Virus record (IMG/VR): IMGVR_UViG_2541047680_000004
Length of the DNA: 64,000 nt
Source of the DNA: a virus
Taxonomy: Duplodnaviria > Heunggongvirae > Uroviricota > Caudoviricetes
Reading direction: 5' to 3' (one strand)
Both the position numbers and the translations under genes were made by a program. Below are positions 894 to 63,357 of the stretch, in pieces. The notes under the pieces are model-generated. The model was not told the origin of the DNA. It worked only from the letters and a program-made list of their open reading frames with translations, and ran no database searches. Every line of letters begins with the position of its first letter. Position 1 is the first letter of the stretch.

Positions 894-2156
894 ATGCCTT
901 TTTTAATTTTCATTATTATACTACTGCTCACCGTGATTTTTTGGGATTGGGTTGTTTTAAATGGTCAAATTGTTGGAACATTGGCTACAGCATTTGCTTT
1001 TATAGCAACAGCATGGAATGCCTACGAAGCGAGAAAAAGTGCAAAAGCAGCTTTTTCAGCCCTTCAATTAACAACAGAATCATTGTTCGAAATGCGAAAG
1101 AGTGCATTTAAACAATGGTTTGATTCCTTATTAAATCAACATGATGAGCTATGTCTTCTTGCAAAACAAATTATCGATAAACGCAAAATTAATTTAAACA
1201 GCGATGAGTTACATAGACTATATTACCCATTGGTAAAACAGCATGAGGTAATACAGTATGTGAAGCATATTATTAATATTTTTGAGTATGTGGATAGTTC
1301 ATTTTATATTGATGGGGAATGTCTAAAGGAAAAAAGAGCGTATGTGTCACAATTAATTTTCAAAATCCCACCTCAGATGAAGTTGATCATTGCTATCTTT
1401 GGATTAAAGATCGATTATTGTGAACATATTAATTCGGGAAAACTGTGTTGTTTATTAAATAAATATGATTTTTTCAATGATGAAATATTTTTTGATGATG
1501 CTTATTCAGATATGCCTTATCTGGATGCATTCATAAACCTTAGATTCAACAAAATATTCAAATCTCGAATGATAAATTATTTTGATAATATCATTAAAAG
1601 TTATTATGTTCCATCGGACGTTAAAAGGGACTGGATGTTTCGAGACCCAAAGCTCGTACCGTCGGTTCTTATGAATTATAAAACTCCTTGTTCTCCTATA
1701 ATTAATGATTACTTTGAGAAGTTGCCTTTACATGTAAGAAACTACTTTGAGGAACTACTTAAAACCGCGAATGATAGAGTTACTCATTTTGACGTTTACA
1801 TCCCACGCCTTATTGGTTGTTCAATCGTGCAACATTACGAAGATGTGCCTTCCGAAAAAAACAGGTTAAATGACAGGAATGATGTAATAGCTATGGCTGA
1901 AGATTACATCGAGAAAAGAAAATCTAATCAACTAGATTACATACTTGAAGATATATACTTCAAGAGTGACGAAGATATAATCCCAGGCCACCATTTGATT
2001 GTGGCATTTGATGACTATGAATTTAAATTATCACTCATTAAGATAAATGAGAATAAAGATAGCGATAATCTTTTAAATCGAATTTATACTGAATCCAGTA
2101 GCATGGTTAAAGAATATAAGCGCGAAATATTAAAACTGGGCGACTATGTAAAGTAA
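894..2156 (+). CDS. hypothetical membrane protein (two N-terminal TM helices plus about 360-aa soluble domain), low-GC orphan
   Basis: 420-aa ORF, strongly AT-rich relative to surroundings, opposite strand to neighbours, own terminator downstream; N-terminus FLIFIIILLLTVIFWDWVV / IVGTLATAFAFIATAW hydrophobic. Confidence 0.6.
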   Translation: MPFLIFIIILLLTVIFWDWVVLNGQIVGTLATAFAFIATAWNAYEARKSAKAAFSALQLTTESLFEMRKSAFKQWFDSLLNQHDELCLLAKQIIDKRKINLNSDELHRLYYPLVKQHEVIQYVKHIINIFEYVDSSFYIDGECLKEKRAYVSQLIFKIPPQMKLIIAIFGLKIDYCEHINSGKLCCLLNKYDFFNDEIFFDDAYSDMPYLDAFINLRFNKIFKSRMINYFDNIIKSYYVPSDVKRDWMFRDPKLVPSVLMNYKTPCSPIINDYFEKLPLHVRNYFEELLKTANDRVTHFDVYIPRLIGCSIVQHYEDVPSEKNRLNDRNDVIAMAEDYIEKRKSNQLDYILEDIYFKSDEDIIPGHHLIVAFDDYEFKLSLIKINENKDSDNLLNRIYTESSSMVKEYKREILKLGDYVK

Positions 2157-2176
2157 ATTGCACTGTTCAACAAAAA

Positions 2177-2201
2177 AGGGGCCGAAGCCCCTTTGAATTT
2201 T
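2177..2201 (+). terminator. rho-independent terminator
   Basis: aggggccgaagcccct hairpin followed by T-rich tract immediately after the 894..2156 stop. Confidence 0.55.
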
Positions 2202-2348
2202 GCGCTGAAAAAAGTGTTGCTAGGATGTTAGCAAGCTATGGTTAAGAACGTCTGCCGTAATTATCTATCACAGCGTTGAGCGGTCTGGTTTATGTTAGCG
2301 GAGTCTTAATCGAGTTGATTAAAAGGCCAAACCGCTCAACGCTGTGTC

Positions 2349-2435
2349 TGGCGGAGAGTAATGGAATCGAACCATCATCGTTTGCACAATGGGACGGTTT
2401 TCAAGACCGCTTGAGCACCATGCTCCCTACTCTCC
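2349..2435 (-). tRNA. tRNA-Ser (anticodon UGA), class II
   Basis: Hand-folded: acceptor GGAGAGT/ACTCTCC, anticodon loop CTTGAAA, long variable arm, T-loop GGTTCGATTCC, discriminator G + encoded CCA; 87 nt. Confidence 0.75.
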
Positions 2436-2755
2436 AGCTATTGTGATGGTCGGTGCTGAACTCCGACACAGGGTTGTAGCAAGCCCCGCAAAGCGCGCAC
2501 TACTGTAGTTGCGGCACATCAGCCTGTGCATTCATCACAATGGTAAGATCACTACCTTTCGACCAGTCATTGTGCACATGAACGACGATTAACCGTAATG
2601 ATATTATCGTTGTGTTGTGAAGCCAGATGCTTATCTTCTGGTTGCTTCAAAGAGCTGCACTTCCTCACAACGGTAAGAGCACTGGTCTGACTCTATCGAT
2701 TTACGGCCTTGTGGGTCAGTATCGCCGATTCGCCCAATGCTCTTACCTGTTGTGT

Positions 2756-2831
2756 TGGTGCCGGTTAACGGACTTGAACCGCTGGCCATTCGCTTACAAA
2801 ACGACTGCTCTACCAACTGAGCTAAACCGGC
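2756..2831 (-). tRNA. tRNA-Thr (anticodon UGU)
   Basis: Acceptor GCCGGTT/AACCGGC, D-arm GCTCAGTTGGTAGAGC, anticodon loop TTTGTAA, T-loop GGTTCAAGTCC, encoded CCA; one mismatch at base of anticodon stem. Confidence 0.75.
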
Positions 2832-2835
2832 AATT

Positions 2836-2922
2836 TGGTGGGGAGTGATGGAGTCGAACCACCCGAGTCGCCATGACAGTAGATTTACAGTCTACACCGC
2901 TACCTCTACGGACTAACTCCCC
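2836..2922 (-). tRNA. tRNA-Tyr (anticodon GUA), class II
   Basis: Acceptor GGGGAGT/ACTCCCC, anticodon stem GTAGA/TCTAC with loop CTGTAAA, long variable arm, T-loop GGTTCGACTCC, encoded CCA; sequence differs from the E. coli host tRNA-Tyr. Confidence 0.8.
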
Positions 2923-2927
2923 TAAAT

Positions 2928-3002
2928 TGGCGATGGTGGGTGGATTCGAACCACCGACCAGTTGGTTAACAGCCAACTGCTCTACCGCTGAGCTACACCA
3001 TC
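2928..3002 (-). tRNA. tRNA-Asn (anticodon GUU)
   Basis: Perfect cloverleaf: acceptor GATGGTG/CACCATC, D-arm GCTCAGCGGTAGAGC, anticodon stem GTTGG/CCAAC with loop CTGTTAA, T-arm GGTGGTTCGAATCCACC, encoded CCA; differs from host tRNA-Asn. Confidence 0.85.
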
Positions 3003-3780
3003 AATTCAGCACTGCCAGTATTTATTACTCAACAGTGCCAATCGCGACGGTTTAGTTTCTGCCAGGAAACGCACCGCTACTTGCACTTTTCGTTAGTGCC
3101 AGACGCTTTCGACTTCGCTCAATAGTAGAAGGCAAAATCTTTAAGTAGATGATGTTTCTGAGGACAGCACCTACTTTGTAATTTATACAATGTGATGTAT
3201 GGAATCATTTGTTGTGAAAACAGGCACCAATGGCAACAGTGGTTAAACCTACACAACAATCCCGTCTTCACAACGTTGAGGCCACTACTCCGATTGAATG
3301 TTTGCCCAACATGTTACATATCAACGCTCGCCGGTATCTCTGTGAATAGAACCTTAGAATTGATAAAAATGTAATGGCCTCAACGTTGTGTGCTGGCTAA
3401 CCATACCAGCCGGGCTACGTCGCCGCTTTTTAACCCAGTATAAACGACATAATTGAACAAAATGACGTAACAGGATGGGCGGTCAGTGGCTAAGAATCCG
3501 GGAGTCATATGGAGTTGAAAATATACCAACCGCCCATTCTGTTACTTCATCGGAGGGAACATGAATGTTCCCTCCTGCGTTCTGCAATCACACTCGCTCA
3601 GTGTGTCCCATTTCGGTAACGAGGCTGGAAACTGACCTCGCTGGTGTTTGGCTTATTAGGCTACTGCCAGATAGACTTCTTCGTTTGCACTTGTATTTAA
3701 GTTCAAACAGTCGCGTCTCAACGAAAACAAAGTCATCTTATACACAAAAGATAAGTAAGTAAATACTTATCATTGTATTT

Positions 3781-4071
3781 TTATTCGGTTGTGACTTTTT
3801 TGATCAAGGCCACTCTACGACTAGGTGTTCTTGTGATGGTGGCAGTGAATCGTTTCGCCTGGATAGTAATGGTTTCGTTCTCCTTAAGTTGCCCGTAGCG
3901 AGTTTCCACCAGGGTGCCAAGACGCCACAGACCATCATCGATACGTTTATGACTAGCAAATTTAATCAGCAACAGTTTTACGACTAACTGACCTACGTAA
4001 AAGGCGAATGCGACTCCGGCCGCTAAGAAATAGGTGGCCAACCACCAGTCCCAAGAAGTTAAATTGCTCAT
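3781..4071 (-). CDS. hypothetical small membrane protein
   Basis: 96-aa ORF with N-terminal hydrophobic helix (WLATYFLAAGVAFAFYVGQLVV). Confidence 0.4.
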   Translation of the reverse strand: MSNLTSWDWWLATYFLAAGVAFAFYVGQLVVKLLLIKFASHKRIDDGLWRLGTLVETRYGQLKENETITIQAKRFTATITRTPSRRVALIKKVTTE

Positions 4072-60045: not shown

Positions 60046-60065
60046 TGCGAAGAGAGGTTGTTTAA

Positions 60066-62099
60066 TTACTTAACCTGGTGGCCAGGTTTAGCACCAGCAT
60101 CCGGGCTTAACAGGAAGATATCTTTCCCGCCGGGGCCAGCAGCCATCACCATGCCTTCAGAGATACCGAAGCGCATTTTACGCGGAGCCAGGTTAGCCAC
60201 CATAATTGTGTGACGACCAATCAGTGCCTGTGGGTCTGGATAAGCAGAACGGATGCCTGAGAAGACATTACGCTTTTCACCACCGAGATCCAGCGTCAGG
60301 CGCAGCAGCTTGTCAGAACCTTCAACAAACTCTGCGTTTTCAATCAGCGCCACGCGCAGGTCAACTTTAGCGAAGTCGTCAAAGGTGATGGTTTCCTGAA
60401 TCGGGTCGTCTGCCAGTGGGCCAGTTACCGGTGCGGCTGTGGCTTTCACTTCTTCTTTGGATGCTTCCACCAGTGCTTCCACCTGTTTCATATCGATACG
60501 GTTATACAATGCCTTGAACGGATTCACTTTATGGCCCAGCAGCGGTTGCTGGATACCATCCCAGGTCAGTTCTGTATTCAGGAATGCTTCTGCACGTTCA
60601 GTCAGTTTCGGCAGTACCGGTTTCAAGTAAGTCATCAGCACGCGGAACAGGTTAATGCCCATAGAGCAAATCGCCTGCAGATCGGCATCGCGTCCTTCCT
60701 GCTTCGCCACCACCCACGGAGCCTGTTCATCAACATAGCGGTTAGCCAGGTCAGCCAGTGCCATGATTTCACGGATAGCTTTACCAAATTCGCGGCTTTC
60801 CCATGCTTCGCCAATCACTTCAGCGGCATCAGTAAAGGTTTTGTACAGTTGCGGGTCAGCCAGTTCGCTTGCCAGCACGCCGTCAAAACGCTTGTTGATA
60901 AAGCCTGCATTACGGGAGGCCAGGTTAACCACTTTGTTCACGATATCGGCATTCACGCGCTGAACGAAATCCTCCAGGTTGAGATCGATATCATCAATGC
61001 GCGAAGAGAGTTTCGCAGTGTAGTAGTAACGCAGGCTGTCGGCGTCAAAATGATTCAGCCAGGTGCTGGCTTTAATAAAGGTACCGCGAGACTTAGACAT
61101 CTTCGCGCCGTTCACCGTCACATAGCCATGAACAAACAGGTTGGTCGGCTTGCGGAAGTTGCTGCCTTCCAGCATTGCTGGCCAGAACAGACTGTGGAAG
61201 TAAACAATATCTTTACCGATGAAGTGGTACAGCTCGGCGGTGGAGTCTTTCTTCCAGTATTCATCGAAGCTTACGCTGTCGCCGCGCTTGTCGCACAGAT
61301 TCTTGAAAGAACCCATATAGCCAATCGGCGCATCTAGCCAGACGTAGAAATATTTACCCGGCGCGTTCGGAATTTCAAAACCGAAATACGGCGCGTCGCG
61401 GGAGATATCCCACTGTTGCAGGCCAGATTCAAACCACTCCTGCATTTTATTTGCCACCTGCTCCTGCAACGCACCGCTGCGGGTCCATGCCTGCAACATT
61501 TCGCTGAAAGAGGGCAGATCAAAGAAGAAGTGTTCAGAATCACGCATTACCGGCGTAGCGCCAGAAACCACCGATTTCGGCTCGATCAATTCAGTCGGGC
61601 TGTAGGTCGCGCCGCAGACTTCGCAGTTATCGCCGTATTGATCCGGGGATTTACATTTCGGGCAGGTGCCTTTCACAAAACGATCCGGCAGGAACATGCC
61701 TTTTTCCGGGTCGTACAACTGAGAGATAGTGCGATTTTTAATAAAACCGTTCTCTTTCAGGCGAGTATAGATAAGCTCAGACAACTGACGGTTCTCTTCG
61801 CTGTGCGTCGAGTGATAGTTGTCATAGCTGATGTTAAAGCCTGCGAAATCAGTCTGGTGTTCCTGACTCATTTCGCCAATCATCTGCTCCGGTGTGATAC
61901 CAAGTTGCTGTGCTTTCAGCATGATCGGCGTACCGTGGGCATCGTCGGCACAGATGAAATTAACCTCGTGGCCGCGCATTCGCTGGTAACGAACCCAGAC
62001 ATCAGCCTGGATGTGCTCCAGCATATGGCCGAGGTGGATTGAGCCGTTAGCGTACGGCAGCGCGCACGTCACCAGAATTTTCTTCGCGACTTGGGTCAT
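60066..62099 (-). CDS. metG: methionyl-tRNA synthetase
   Basis: 677-aa product beginning [26 protein letters not shown] (HIGH motif) with KMSKS motif, matching enterobacterial MetG as recalled from memory; track ORF 60066..62228 has a spurious N-terminal extension. Confidence 0.95.
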
Positions 62100-62256
62100 A
62101 GTAGGCATTACTTCTTTGTAGTGAAAAGGGGCTTGATAGTAACAAAATGGCCTTATGTCTGCCATGTGATAACAGCATTTCTCATAAATGATTAAATGTC
62201 GCAGCTGGAGTACACTACAAGGCGACAATTGCGCAAATTAAAATAAAGGAGACGGG

Positions 62257-63357
62257 ATGAGCGAGTCCAAATCGCCGGATGCCCTGAGAGCAATGGTAGC
62301 CGGTACGCTGGCTAATTTTCAGCACCCAACCCTGAAACACAACCTGACTACGCTTAAAGCGTTACACCATGTTGCGTTGATGGATGACACACTGCATGTC
62401 GAACTAATCATGCCTTTCGTGTGGAATAAGCCTTTTGAAGACCTGAAAGAGCAATGTAGTGGTGATCTGCTCCGTATCACTGGCGCAAAGGCTATTGACT
62501 GGAAGCTGTCGTACAACATTGCCACGCTTAAGCGCGTCAAAAACCAACCAGGCATTAATGGTGTTAAGAATATTATCGCCGTAAGCTCAGGCAAGGGCGG
62601 TGTAGGCAAATCGTCCACAGCAGTAAACTTGGCACTGGCTTTGGCTGCTGAAGGTGCGAAAGTTGGTATTTTGGATGCCGATATCTATGGTCCATCAATT
62701 CCAACCATGCTGGGCGCGGAAAACCAACGTCCAACCTCACCGGACGGTACTCACATGGCACCTATCATGTCTCATGGCCTGGCAACCAACTCTATTGGTT
62801 ATCTGGTCACCGACGACAATGCAATGGTGTGGCGTGGACCGATGGCCAGCAAGGCGCTGATGCAGATGTTGCAGGAAACACTGTGGCCTGATCTGGACTA
62901 TCTCGTTCTCGATATGCCGCCGGGCACTGGTGATATTCAATTGACGCTGGCGCAGAACATTCCTGTAACTGGTGCGGTTGTGGTAACTACGCCGCAAGAC
63001 ATCGCGCTGATCGATGCGAAGAAAGGCATTGTGATGTTCGAAAAAGTCGAAGTGCCGGTACTAGGTATCGTCGAAAACATGAGTGTGCATATTTGCAGTA
63101 ACTGCGGTCATCACGAGCCAATTTTTGGCACCGGTGGCGCACAGAAACTGGCCGAGAAATACAACACGCAGTTGTTAGGCCAAATGCCACTTCATATCTC
63201 TCTTCGTGAAGATCTGGATAACGGAACACCAACCGTTATTAGTCGTCCAGATAGCGAATTTACGGCTATTTATCGTGACCTCGCAGATCGCGTTGCTGCC
63301 CAAATGTATTGGCAAGGTGAAGTAATACCTGGCGAAATCGCATTCCGCGCAGTGTGA
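62257..63357 (+). CDS. apbC: Fe-S cluster carrier ATPase Mrp/ApbC
   Basis: Product ...SPDALRAMVAGTLANFQHPTLKHNLTTLKALHHV... with P-loop SGKGGVGKSS and CxxC (CSNCGHH); divergent from metG as in E. coli. Confidence 0.9.
   Translation: MSESKSPDALRAMVAGTLANFQHPTLKHNLTTLKALHHVALMDDTLHVELIMPFVWNKPFEDLKEQCSGDLLRITGAKAIDWKLSYNIATLKRVKNQPGINGVKNIIAVSSGKGGVGKSSTAVNLALALAAEGAKVGILDADIYGPSIPTMLGAENQRPTSPDGTHMAPIMSHGLATNSIGYLVTDDNAMVWRGPMASKALMQMLQETLWPDLDYLVLDMPPGTGDIQLTLAQNIPVTGAVVVTTPQDIALIDAKKGIVMFEKVEVPVLGIVENMSVHICSNCGHHEPIFGTGGAQKLAEKYNTQLLGQMPLHISLREDLDNGTPTVISRPDSEFTAIYRDLADRVAAQMYWQGEVIPGEIAFRAV

Follow-up and report, generated by a model that had tools for sequence, protein, structure and literature searches.

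The viral sequence considered here (IMG/VR record IMGVR_UViG_2541047680_000004, class Caudoviricetes; 64,000 nt, hereafter the window) carries a cassette of four tRNA genes, all on the minus strand. In the direction in which they would be transcribed, they encode tRNA-Asn(GUU), tRNA-Tyr(GUA), tRNA-Thr(UGU) and tRNA-Ser(UGA), and exactly these four tRNA genes, and none else, were detected by ARAGORN in the whole window (Table 1). Judged by its sequence, the element that carries them is an Escherichia coli phage-plasmid of the SSU5 supergroup, of the pECOH89-like kind. We favour, with moderate confidence, the reading that the cassette would serve two ends at once, matching the supply of tRNAs to the demands of the element and countering the defence nucleases that destroy tRNAs.

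Several lines of evidence support the identity of the genes. All four had been listed in an original prediction made from the DNA letters, and the general tRNA model of Rfam recovers three of them, Asn, Thr and Tyr, each above the gathering score of 29 bits; with Rfam E-values between 1e-16 and 3e-7, these matches are not due to chance. The Ser gene falls below the threshold of the general model, its top model being tRNA-Sec (44.8 bits against a gathering score of 47), and is an atypical member of the bacterial elongator tRNA genes. The tight packing that had been described, with 4–5 nt between neighbours, holds for Asn, Tyr and Thr (5 and 4 nt) and fails for Ser, which lies 320 nt downstream of Thr across a gap at 2436–2755. 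Likewise, the CCA 3′ ends are encoded in all four genes as described, whereas the folds are less clean than had been thought: the Thr anticodon stem has a G27·A43 mismatch and a U31·G39 wobble, Tyr has 2 nt inserted between its acceptor stem and its D stem, and Ser has a tRNA-Sec-like D arm.

Identity to the isoacceptors of E. coli K-12 is 62% for Ser (serT), 74% for Thr (thrU), 68–70% for Tyr (tyrU/tyrT) and 65% for Asn (asnT). At 62–74% identity none of the four is a host copy, and a host origin of the genes was rejected on this ground; the difference had been noticed for Tyr and Asn, and it extends to Thr and Ser. The identity rules of the E. coli synthetases for Thr, Asn, Tyr and Ser are well established, and read against them the sequences keep the expected elements: G1-C72, C2-G71, G35 and U36 in Thr; the anticodon GUU and G73 in Asn; GUA, A73 and the long variable arm in Tyr; and G2-C71, A3-U70, G73 and the long variable arm in Ser. 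Taken together, the four are real tRNA genes that belong to the element, and they probably form a functional cassette.

Ownership by the element, as originally proposed, agrees with where the cassette is found. In 5426 complete E. coli genomes, 767 of the 781 places that match the 1-kb region of the locus lie on plasmids of ~110 kb; a match of some extent is present in 744 of the genomes, and in 158 it covers at least 80% of the region. Identity of the region is 99.8% to NZ_CP031136.1, an E. coli plasmid of 109 kb, and 99.2% to pECOH89 (NC_023916.1), and the near-identical plasmids (99.2–99.8%) span 109–114 kb. The publication on pECOH89 described a phage-like plasmid that is related to Salmonella phage SSU5, with only tRNA-Thr and tRNA-Asn reported at the time, and the RefSeq pipeline now annotates all four. 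The description of the set as private to the element does not stand: the cassette is widely shared and already annotated.

Table 1. Features of the tRNA locus, in window coordinates.
Feature	Position	Strand	Description
tRNA-Asn(GUU)	2928–3002	minus	ARAGORN; Rfam 75.5 bits; first gene of the cassette; CCA encoded
tRNA-Tyr(GUA)	2836–2922	minus	ARAGORN; Rfam 41.6 bits; class II, long variable arm; CCA encoded
tRNA-Thr(UGU)	2756–2831	minus	ARAGORN; Rfam 66.8 bits; anticodon stem remodelled; CCA encoded
tRNA-Ser(UGA)	2349–2435	minus	ARAGORN; atypical class II; compact D arm; CCA encoded
Hairpin H1	2666–2754	minus	starts 1 nt after the Thr CCA; ~20-bp stem, conserved bulged A, 48-nt variable tip; inverted repeat I4
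H2, degraded second hairpin copy	2536–2614	minus	direct repeat D2, 87% between 2531–2553 and 2661–2683
Block B	2440–2541	minus	102 nt; predicted four-armed cloverleaf-like fold; 9-bp closing stem AUUGUGAUG/CAUCACAAU; ends 4 nt before tRNA-Ser
Hairpin after Ser	2269–2346	minus	3 nt after tRNA-Ser; 20-nt arms, 38-nt loop; inverted repeat I2, 95% complementary; kept in Cyrano
Leader hairpin	3269–3390	minus	in the 780-nt non-coding leader upstream of Asn; 20-nt arms, 82-nt loop; inverted repeat I3, 95% complementary
Terminator-like GC hairpin	2175–2194	minus	T runs on both sides; sole such site in 1800–3800

Each of the four isoacceptors in the cassette is known from the literature as a target of anti-phage tRNases of E. 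coli. P2-OLD targets tRNA-Thr(UGU), and phage-encoded Thr(UGU) tRNAs rescue through an altered CNG motif and a lost 27:43 pair, both of which are needed. AriB of the PARIS system cuts Lys-UUU, Thr-UGU and, more weakly, Asn-GUU at 40|41 beside U36-A-A-U39; changes at positions 39 and 41 render the tRNA-Lys of phage T5 resistant to AriB, and the tRNA-Lys, tRNA-Thr and tRNA-Asn of T5 together neutralise PARIS. PtuAB of retron-Eco7 depletes tRNA-Tyr, for which the tRNA-Tyr of T5 provides rescue, and the HNH nuclease of a type I-A retron depletes all tRNA-Ser species. PrrC and RloC, which had been suggested as the relevant nucleases, are the wrong suspects, because PrrC targets tRNA-Lys, which is absent from the element.

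The substitutions in the Thr and Asn genes fall on the mapped positions of OLD and AriB (27:43, 28–30, 39 and 41). The Thr anticodon arm of the window reads GUCGU-UU-UGU-AA-GCGAA, compared with ACUGA/UCAGU in host thrU. Positions 28–30 are UCG and 40–42 are CGA, where the host has CUG and CAG, so that no CNG remains on either strand; 27 and 43 no longer pair, and G occupies both 39 and 41. In Asn, the arm reads U36-A-A-C39-C40-A41 (UAACC|A) against UAAUC|C in the host. The tRNAs that rescue cells from P2-OLD (tRNA-Thr6 and tRNA-Thr21) have the same anticodon as the Thr gene of the window, which shares with them both the altered CNG and the lost 27:43 pair; tRNA-Thr6 differs from thrU at 12 positions, and the window gene at about 20. 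Between the T5 tRNA-Tyr validated against retron-Eco7 and the window's own Tyr gene, identity is 82%.

Relatives of the cassette were collected from IMG/VR by a pattern scan with the tRNA-Thr pattern, which yielded at least 120 loci. At least seven different anticodon stems are combined with a single, constant Thr acceptor stem (GCCGGTT/AACCGGC), and G39 is present in every cassette Thr as well as in the validated T5 Thr. The Ser genes of the family are at least 95% identical, yet their position 39 is occupied by three different bases. This pattern looks like a diversification of anticodon arms that is focused on the region read by the nucleases, and a counter-defence role of the cassette is plausible on these sequence comparisons.

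The matching of tRNA supply to demand is a real component of the proposed benefit. Codon use in the window was compared with that in a single 50-kb sample of K-12 with 42 annotated genes, to which all enrichments given here refer; GC content is 46% in the window and 52% in the host sample. ACA is over-used 3.05-fold (rank 4 of 61 codons) and UCA 2.69-fold (rank 6), followed by AAU at 1.77-fold (rank 13), while AAC, UAU and UAC stand at 1.0–1.3-fold. At the amino-acid level, Ser (1.44-fold), Asn (1.30-fold), Tyr (1.25-fold) and Thr (1.19-fold) are four of the five most enriched, Lys being the remaining one; the chance that four picks from 20 would all lie in the top five is ~5/4845 (~0.001). 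Neither host-identical tRNAs nor a lack of codon bias matching the anticodons was found. The proposed compensation for codon usage has partial support, from ACA and UCA and from the four amino acids, and less from the Asn and Tyr codons; the case for supply matching is best for Thr and Ser, and for Asn and Tyr it is weak where codons are concerned.

How far might supply matching suffice by itself? The cassette might simply serve the AT-richer codons and the structural proteins rich in Ser, Thr, Asn and Tyr, its differences from the host genes being the mark of T5- and P1-type ancestry, and we hold this to be possible, if rather unlikely. The ranks of ACA and UCA and the place of the four amino acids among the top five fit this explanation. 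The cassette slots of relatives hold Arg-UCU and Ile2-CAU, which match and decode AGA, AGG and AUA, codons that are among the top ones in the window. The host genes serT and thrU are single-copy, the latter according to the P2-OLD paper. The P1-type Thr and Asn genes, in addition, retain the nuclease motifs. Against it, E. coli has four asn and three tyr tRNA genes, and the corresponding codons are mildly enriched. The differences are also unevenly distributed: within one Thr backbone the anticodon stem alone has been swapped at least seven times, position 39 has varied among three bases in Ser genes that are otherwise almost constant, and the Thr and Asn changes lie exactly on the sites mapped for OLD and AriB.

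Several findings weigh against the combined reading of supply and counter-defence, on either of its sides. The element has no tRNA-Lys, though T5 required its tRNA-Lys to escape PARIS: tRNA-Lys(UUU) was found neither in the window nor in the other 45 kb of the plasmid closest to it, a stretch that holds no further tRNA. The anticodon loops of Ser, Tyr and Asn are the same as those of the host, and the tRNA-Ser(GCU) of T5 is cut by the Ser-cleaving retron and is not resistant to it. In the commonest variants of the cassette, those of P1 type, Thr still has CUG/CAG and Asn still has UAAUC|A; resistance is thus no general property of the cassette. In the Thr anticodon stem of the window only three pairs are Watson-Crick; this stem is rare (2 of 116 among the IMG/VR matches listed), and it could be slightly defective instead of adaptive. 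On the supply side, the Asn and Tyr codons are enriched a mere 1.0–1.8-fold, and for AGA, AGG, CGA and AUA, the rare codons with the highest enrichment, the element provides no tRNA, AGA being the most over-used codon of the window (3.9–4.9-fold); the host reference, moreover, is only that one sample of 42 genes. Finally, a sigma-70-like promoter was not found in 1800–3800, and the leader was unconvincing by eye.

In the mechanism that we propose for the combined reading, the four genes would probably be transcribed together on the minus strand, and the transcript would contain, besides the tRNAs, several long hairpins and a single cloverleaf-like block. The hairpins would most likely act in processing or stabilisation, for example as RNase III-type cleavage sites, and the transcript would end at the terminator-like hairpin (2194–2175). 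For their maturation the tRNAs would depend on host enzymes, and for charging on host synthetases. The products would provide extra decoders for ACA and UCA, codons that are over-used about three-fold in the element and served by single-copy genes in the host, and would raise the general supply for Ser, Asn, Tyr and Thr, which are in high demand in the proteins of the element. They would also supply versions of the isoacceptors that are destroyed by prophage- or satellite-borne P2-OLD, PARIS AriB, retron-Eco7 PtuAB and the type I-A retron HNH nuclease. With arms altered at the cleavage determinants, these versions could allow translation of the element to go on after the host tRNAs have been cut.

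The cassette is a mosaic module, shared by P1 and a P1-like phage, by D6, Cyrano and N4-like phages, and by most IMG/VR loci of the scan. Among the IMG/VR matches listed, the layouts are Asn-Thr (at least 44 loci), Asn-Tyr-Thr-Ser (at least 14), Asn-Thr-Ser (at least 12) and Asn-Tyr-Thr (at least 10), with Arg(UCU) in place of Asn in about 12 loci and a spacer between Thr and Ser that ranges from 8 to 646 nt; the exact 5/4/320 spacing of the window recurs in at least two loci of the four-gene layout (L046 and L058). P1 has Asn-Thr, with tRNA-Ile2 further on, and the P1-like phage Ro157c2YLVW has Asn-Tyr-Thr with spacings of 5 and 4 nt as in the window. In D6, Asn-Thr is followed after a gap of ~465 nt by an odd Ser(UGA) like that of the window. 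The SSU5-like Cyrano has a gapless Asn-Thr-Ser without Tyr, and the N4-like phages have Asn-Ser-Thr with a Ser gene of another lineage. Substitutions among the tRNA variants are compensatory or compatible with structure.

P1 has its Asn and Thr genes (trnA and trnT, in the C1-controlled ban operon) in the same order, on the same strand and with the same spacing of 2–5 nt; they are 89% and 82% identical to those of the window, and Thr is followed by the same hairpin. At the DNA level, 2442–2553 (112 nt) is 96% identical to P1 and 2610–2861 is 78% identical. In contrast to P1, the window cassette sits on an unrelated SSU5-type phage-plasmid and includes Tyr and Ser, which P1 lacks, P1 having tRNA-Ile2 in addition; the Thr anticodon stem is GUCGU/GCGAA in the window and CCUGC/GCAGG in P1, and position 39 of Asn is C and U, respectively. 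No P1-style Pban/C1 operator or dicF-like region was found upstream, nor any DicF or other Rfam match in 3003–3780, and the leader upstream of Asn is common only to SSU5-like loci. Identities to the genes of Ro157c2YLVW are 97% for Tyr, 99% for Asn and 91% for Thr, and the tRNA-Ser(UGA) of D6 is 97% identical to that of the window.

A second source is apparent from T5. The Tyr and Ser(UGA) genes are 82% and 73% identical to T5 genes, well above their identity to the host, whereas Thr and Asn are only 62–63% identical to those of T5. T5 is a virulent phage with ~24 tRNAs, tRNA-Lys included, and the element of the window is temperate and plasmid-borne, with four tRNAs and no tRNA-Lys. According to the T5 record, the Tyr and Ser(UGA) homologues are active suppressors after a change of anticodon, Ser1 being an efficient one. 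By these comparisons, the Tyr and Ser genes are of T5 ancestry, in a cassette that is a P1/D6/SSU5/N4 module.

In about a dozen relatives (L012, L014, L018 and L037 among them), the first slot of the cassette, elsewhere that of Asn(GUU), holds an Arg(UCU) gene with the same acceptor stem, T arm and CCA. Its D loop, which supplies A20, is new, as is its anticodon arm. The arrangement looks like tRNA remoulding from Asn to Arg.

The Ser gene has an unusual shape. Its anticodon 5′-UGA reads serine, which makes it a serine tRNA of odd shape and no selenocysteine tRNA. It has an A at position 8, a D stem of 4–5 bp with a loop of 3–5 nt, and a variable stem of 6 bp directly next to a T stem of 4 bp, and an A8-U pair would be able to lengthen the acceptor stem to 8 bp. 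The predicted energy of this 8/4 cloverleaf is 3.4 kcal/mol better than that of the 7/5 form (−30.9 versus −27.5 kcal/mol), and the 8/4 fold leaves a normal 2-nt linker. Positions 8 and 65 are invariant in the 14 variants of this tRNA-Ser and in T5, so that covariation is silent on the 8/4 fold. The variable stem shows one compensatory and several compatible changes among the family variants. Bacteriophages have been reported to carry (8/4) tRNA-Ser genes (Mukai et al., 2017), and the gene of the window resembles the (8/4) tRNA-Ser and allo-tRNAs of that study in its long variable arm, compact D arm, best Rfam match to tRNA-Sec and G73. Unlike that group, it has an ordinary serine anticodon, and its 8/4 form follows from predicted energy and linker length only. 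The tRNA-Ser1(UGA) of T5 (L134, 10846–10935) shares with it the A8, the compact D arm and the ATGG/CCAT T stem, and the D6 record states that tRNAscan-SE was unable to name the amino acid of the D6 Ser(UGA) gene. Membership of the (8/4) tRNA-Ser group is a plausible prediction from the modelled folds.

The DNA between and around the tRNA genes is also structured. H1 has a minimum free energy of −38.6 kcal/mol (z = −5.4 against shuffles). The 3′ arm of H2 overlaps the closing stem of block B by 6 nt, and an intact version of the H2 hairpin lies directly 3′ of tRNA-Thr in L026. The hairpin after Ser and the leader hairpin belong to the same family as H1 and were both recovered by a family scan, which found no full copies elsewhere in the 64-kb window. 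A hairpin of this family lies directly after Thr in almost every related cassette (L007–L131), with a conserved stem base, CA(C/U)AA(C/U)...(G/A)UUGUG, and hypervariable tips of 30–120 nt; the tips are of at least seven unrelated types, some with perfect T-arm sequences, e.g. GGGUUCGAAUCCC. In 38 distinct hairpins (166 copies), the stems read on the tRNA strand contain 669 Watson-Crick, 43 G·U and 7 A·C pairs, and this excess of G·U over A·C argues for RNA folding on the tRNA strand and not for a DNA palindrome. When 14 arm pairs are aligned, two-sided changes occur in 8 of the 17 base pairs and pairing holds in 97.9% of the cells, a result that is partly circular as the arms were selected for pairing. 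An integron attC-like reading of the CACAAC...GUUGUG stems was rejected by eye, as the R″/R′ consensus is not fitted.

Block B is predicted to fold at −36.8 kcal/mol with a marginal z of −1.9. It is 95–100% identical in 60 loci, P1-like and SSU5-like ones included, and is conserved beyond the tRNAs themselves; an exact 30-mer from it occurs in 106 IMG/VR stretches, mainly contigs that also bear the cassette. The P1 annotation places two hypothetical genes, upl and plp, in the spacer DNA, both on the opposite strand and with plp overlapping trnT. In the window these frames are broken, so coding does not account for the conservation, and a coding remnant of upl/plp was rejected as its cause: only 21 amino acids of Upl and scattered pieces of Plp survive, spread over three frames with stops, and the excess of G·U over A·C pairs in the stems is found on the tRNA strand. 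Rfam gave no family for block B and nothing above noise in the spacer, leader and trailer (weak tmRNA, STnc130, sX4 and C/D-box matches). The downstream region of P1 has a sub-threshold match to STnc100 (33 bits against a gathering score of 47), and the window has none.

Further signals flank the cassette. The leader hairpin is 96–100% conserved in 22 SSU5-like loci. Elsewhere in the leader, at 3462–3575, a 22-nt inverted repeat (3462–3483 with 3529–3550) is accompanied by a perfect 11-bp palindrome (3552–3575); both are conserved in SSU5-like loci and could be an operator or an RNA structure. At the other end, the terminator-like hairpin probably ends both the tRNA transcript and the convergent gene at 894–2156, as far as its sequence and position indicate, though 1.5 such sites are expected in shuffled versions of 1800–3800 and the site is weak taken alone.

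What might these RNAs do? The species 1 RNA of T4 is cut by RNase III. The nearest precedent is in T5, whose record describes structured stable RNAs of ~70–170 nt between tRNA genes, and those that have been folded have closing terminal helices like those of the hairpins and block B. The T5 RNAs and the hairpins of the window have no sequence similarity, and homology between them was rejected for this reason. The hairpins are most likely processing or stabilising modules of the tRNA transcript. Two N4-like loci (L011 and L120) and L088, which are unrelated phages, have a long hairpin of ~24 bp directly after tRNA-Thr(UGU), each of different sequence, and the placing of a long hairpin behind a tRNA may be a general pattern.

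The arm swapping, the shape of the Ser gene and the structured RNAs can be joined into one bolder explanation, in which the cassette would be a modular, fast-evolving anti-nuclease toolkit of temperate phage-plasmids and more than a tRNA supplement. Anticodon arms are swapped on constant tRNA bodies, as in Thr and in the Asn-to-Arg relatives; tRNA-Ser would be of the 8/4, tRNA-Sec-like kind, and the hairpins and block B would form a new tRNA-linked RNA family with a function of its own; for example, they may be decoys or sponges for tRNA-directed nucleases, or slots for mobile cargo exchanged between phages. As a joint claim, we consider this doubtful.

It is also conceivable that the cassette has little effect on translation and is passive cargo, either a hitch-hiking P1- or T5-like module or an insertion hot spot that serves as a recombination landmark. 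A mosaic cassette exchanged between unrelated phages, with a Thr-to-Ser spacer of such variable length among the matches listed, would fit, as would the tyrosine recombinase gene and the variable accessory genes within 3 kb of it and the Tn3-type resistance transposons reported near the tRNA loci of SSU5-like phage-plasmids. We regard this explanation as very unlikely. The cloverleaves, CCA ends and identity elements are intact in all four genes, the substitutions among variants respect structure, and the cassette persists in hundreds of plasmids and phages, with matches in 744 of the 5426 E. coli genomes. Moreover, the homologues in T5 are active, Tyr and Ser in translation according to the record notes and tRNA-Tyr in rescue.

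Upstream of the cassette is a block of small minus-strand genes, one of them for an ATP-dependent DNA ligase, and the cassette is convergent with an uncharacterised gene at 894–2156 on the plus strand. This gene encodes an AT-rich protein of 420 amino acids with an N-terminal membrane anchor, which belongs to the phage family phrog_18168 and has no match in Pfam, NCBIfam or PDB sequences. A weak match to PtuB (16.9 bits, E = 9e-4) covers the transmembrane N-terminus; no HNH motif was seen by eye in the translation, and identity with PtuB was judged spurious, as the match involves the transmembrane segment only and has no other database support. The protein may be accessory or defence cargo, and Cyrano has different, shorter genes at this position. 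That the element has its own tRNA-cutting exclusion system, against which the cassette would supply resistant tRNAs, is most improbable: such defence nucleases are often found on mobile elements, and the membrane-anchored protein with its PtuB match adjoins tRNA-Ser, but that match has just been discounted, no tRNase was found among 29 non-structural open reading frames of the window (PADLOC) or in the annotation of the rest of the closest plasmid, and the cassette also occurs in elements without the 894–2156 gene, e.g. Cyrano.

At 60065–63353, the window contains metG (methionyl-tRNA synthetase, 94% nucleotide identity to K-12) and mrp/apbC (82%). In the closest plasmid, these two genes adjoin an IS1 remnant. 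The metG of the element is reminiscent of the glnS found on D6-like phage-plasmids.

The tRNA set itself is already known through annotation, and both functions considered here are established ideas for phage tRNAs. The match between the cassette of a temperate element and the target set of OLD, PARIS and the retrons appears to be undescribed, as do the swapping of anticodon arms, including the remoulding of Asn to Arg, and the conserved hairpin and block B RNAs.

If the hairpins are RNAs, upl and plp may be mis-annotated non-coding RNAs in P1, a classic model phage. The anticodon-stem variants constitute a natural panel for mapping nuclease recognition. If the counter-defence role is true, the idea of rescue tRNAs would no longer be confined to large virulent phages like T5 and would take in temperate plasmid-prophages. 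SSU5- and P1-type phage-plasmids are common in clinical E. coli and spread resistance genes; if their tRNAs permit replication in hosts that carry P2-OLD, PARIS or type I-A retrons, the cassette would help to set the host range of these elements.

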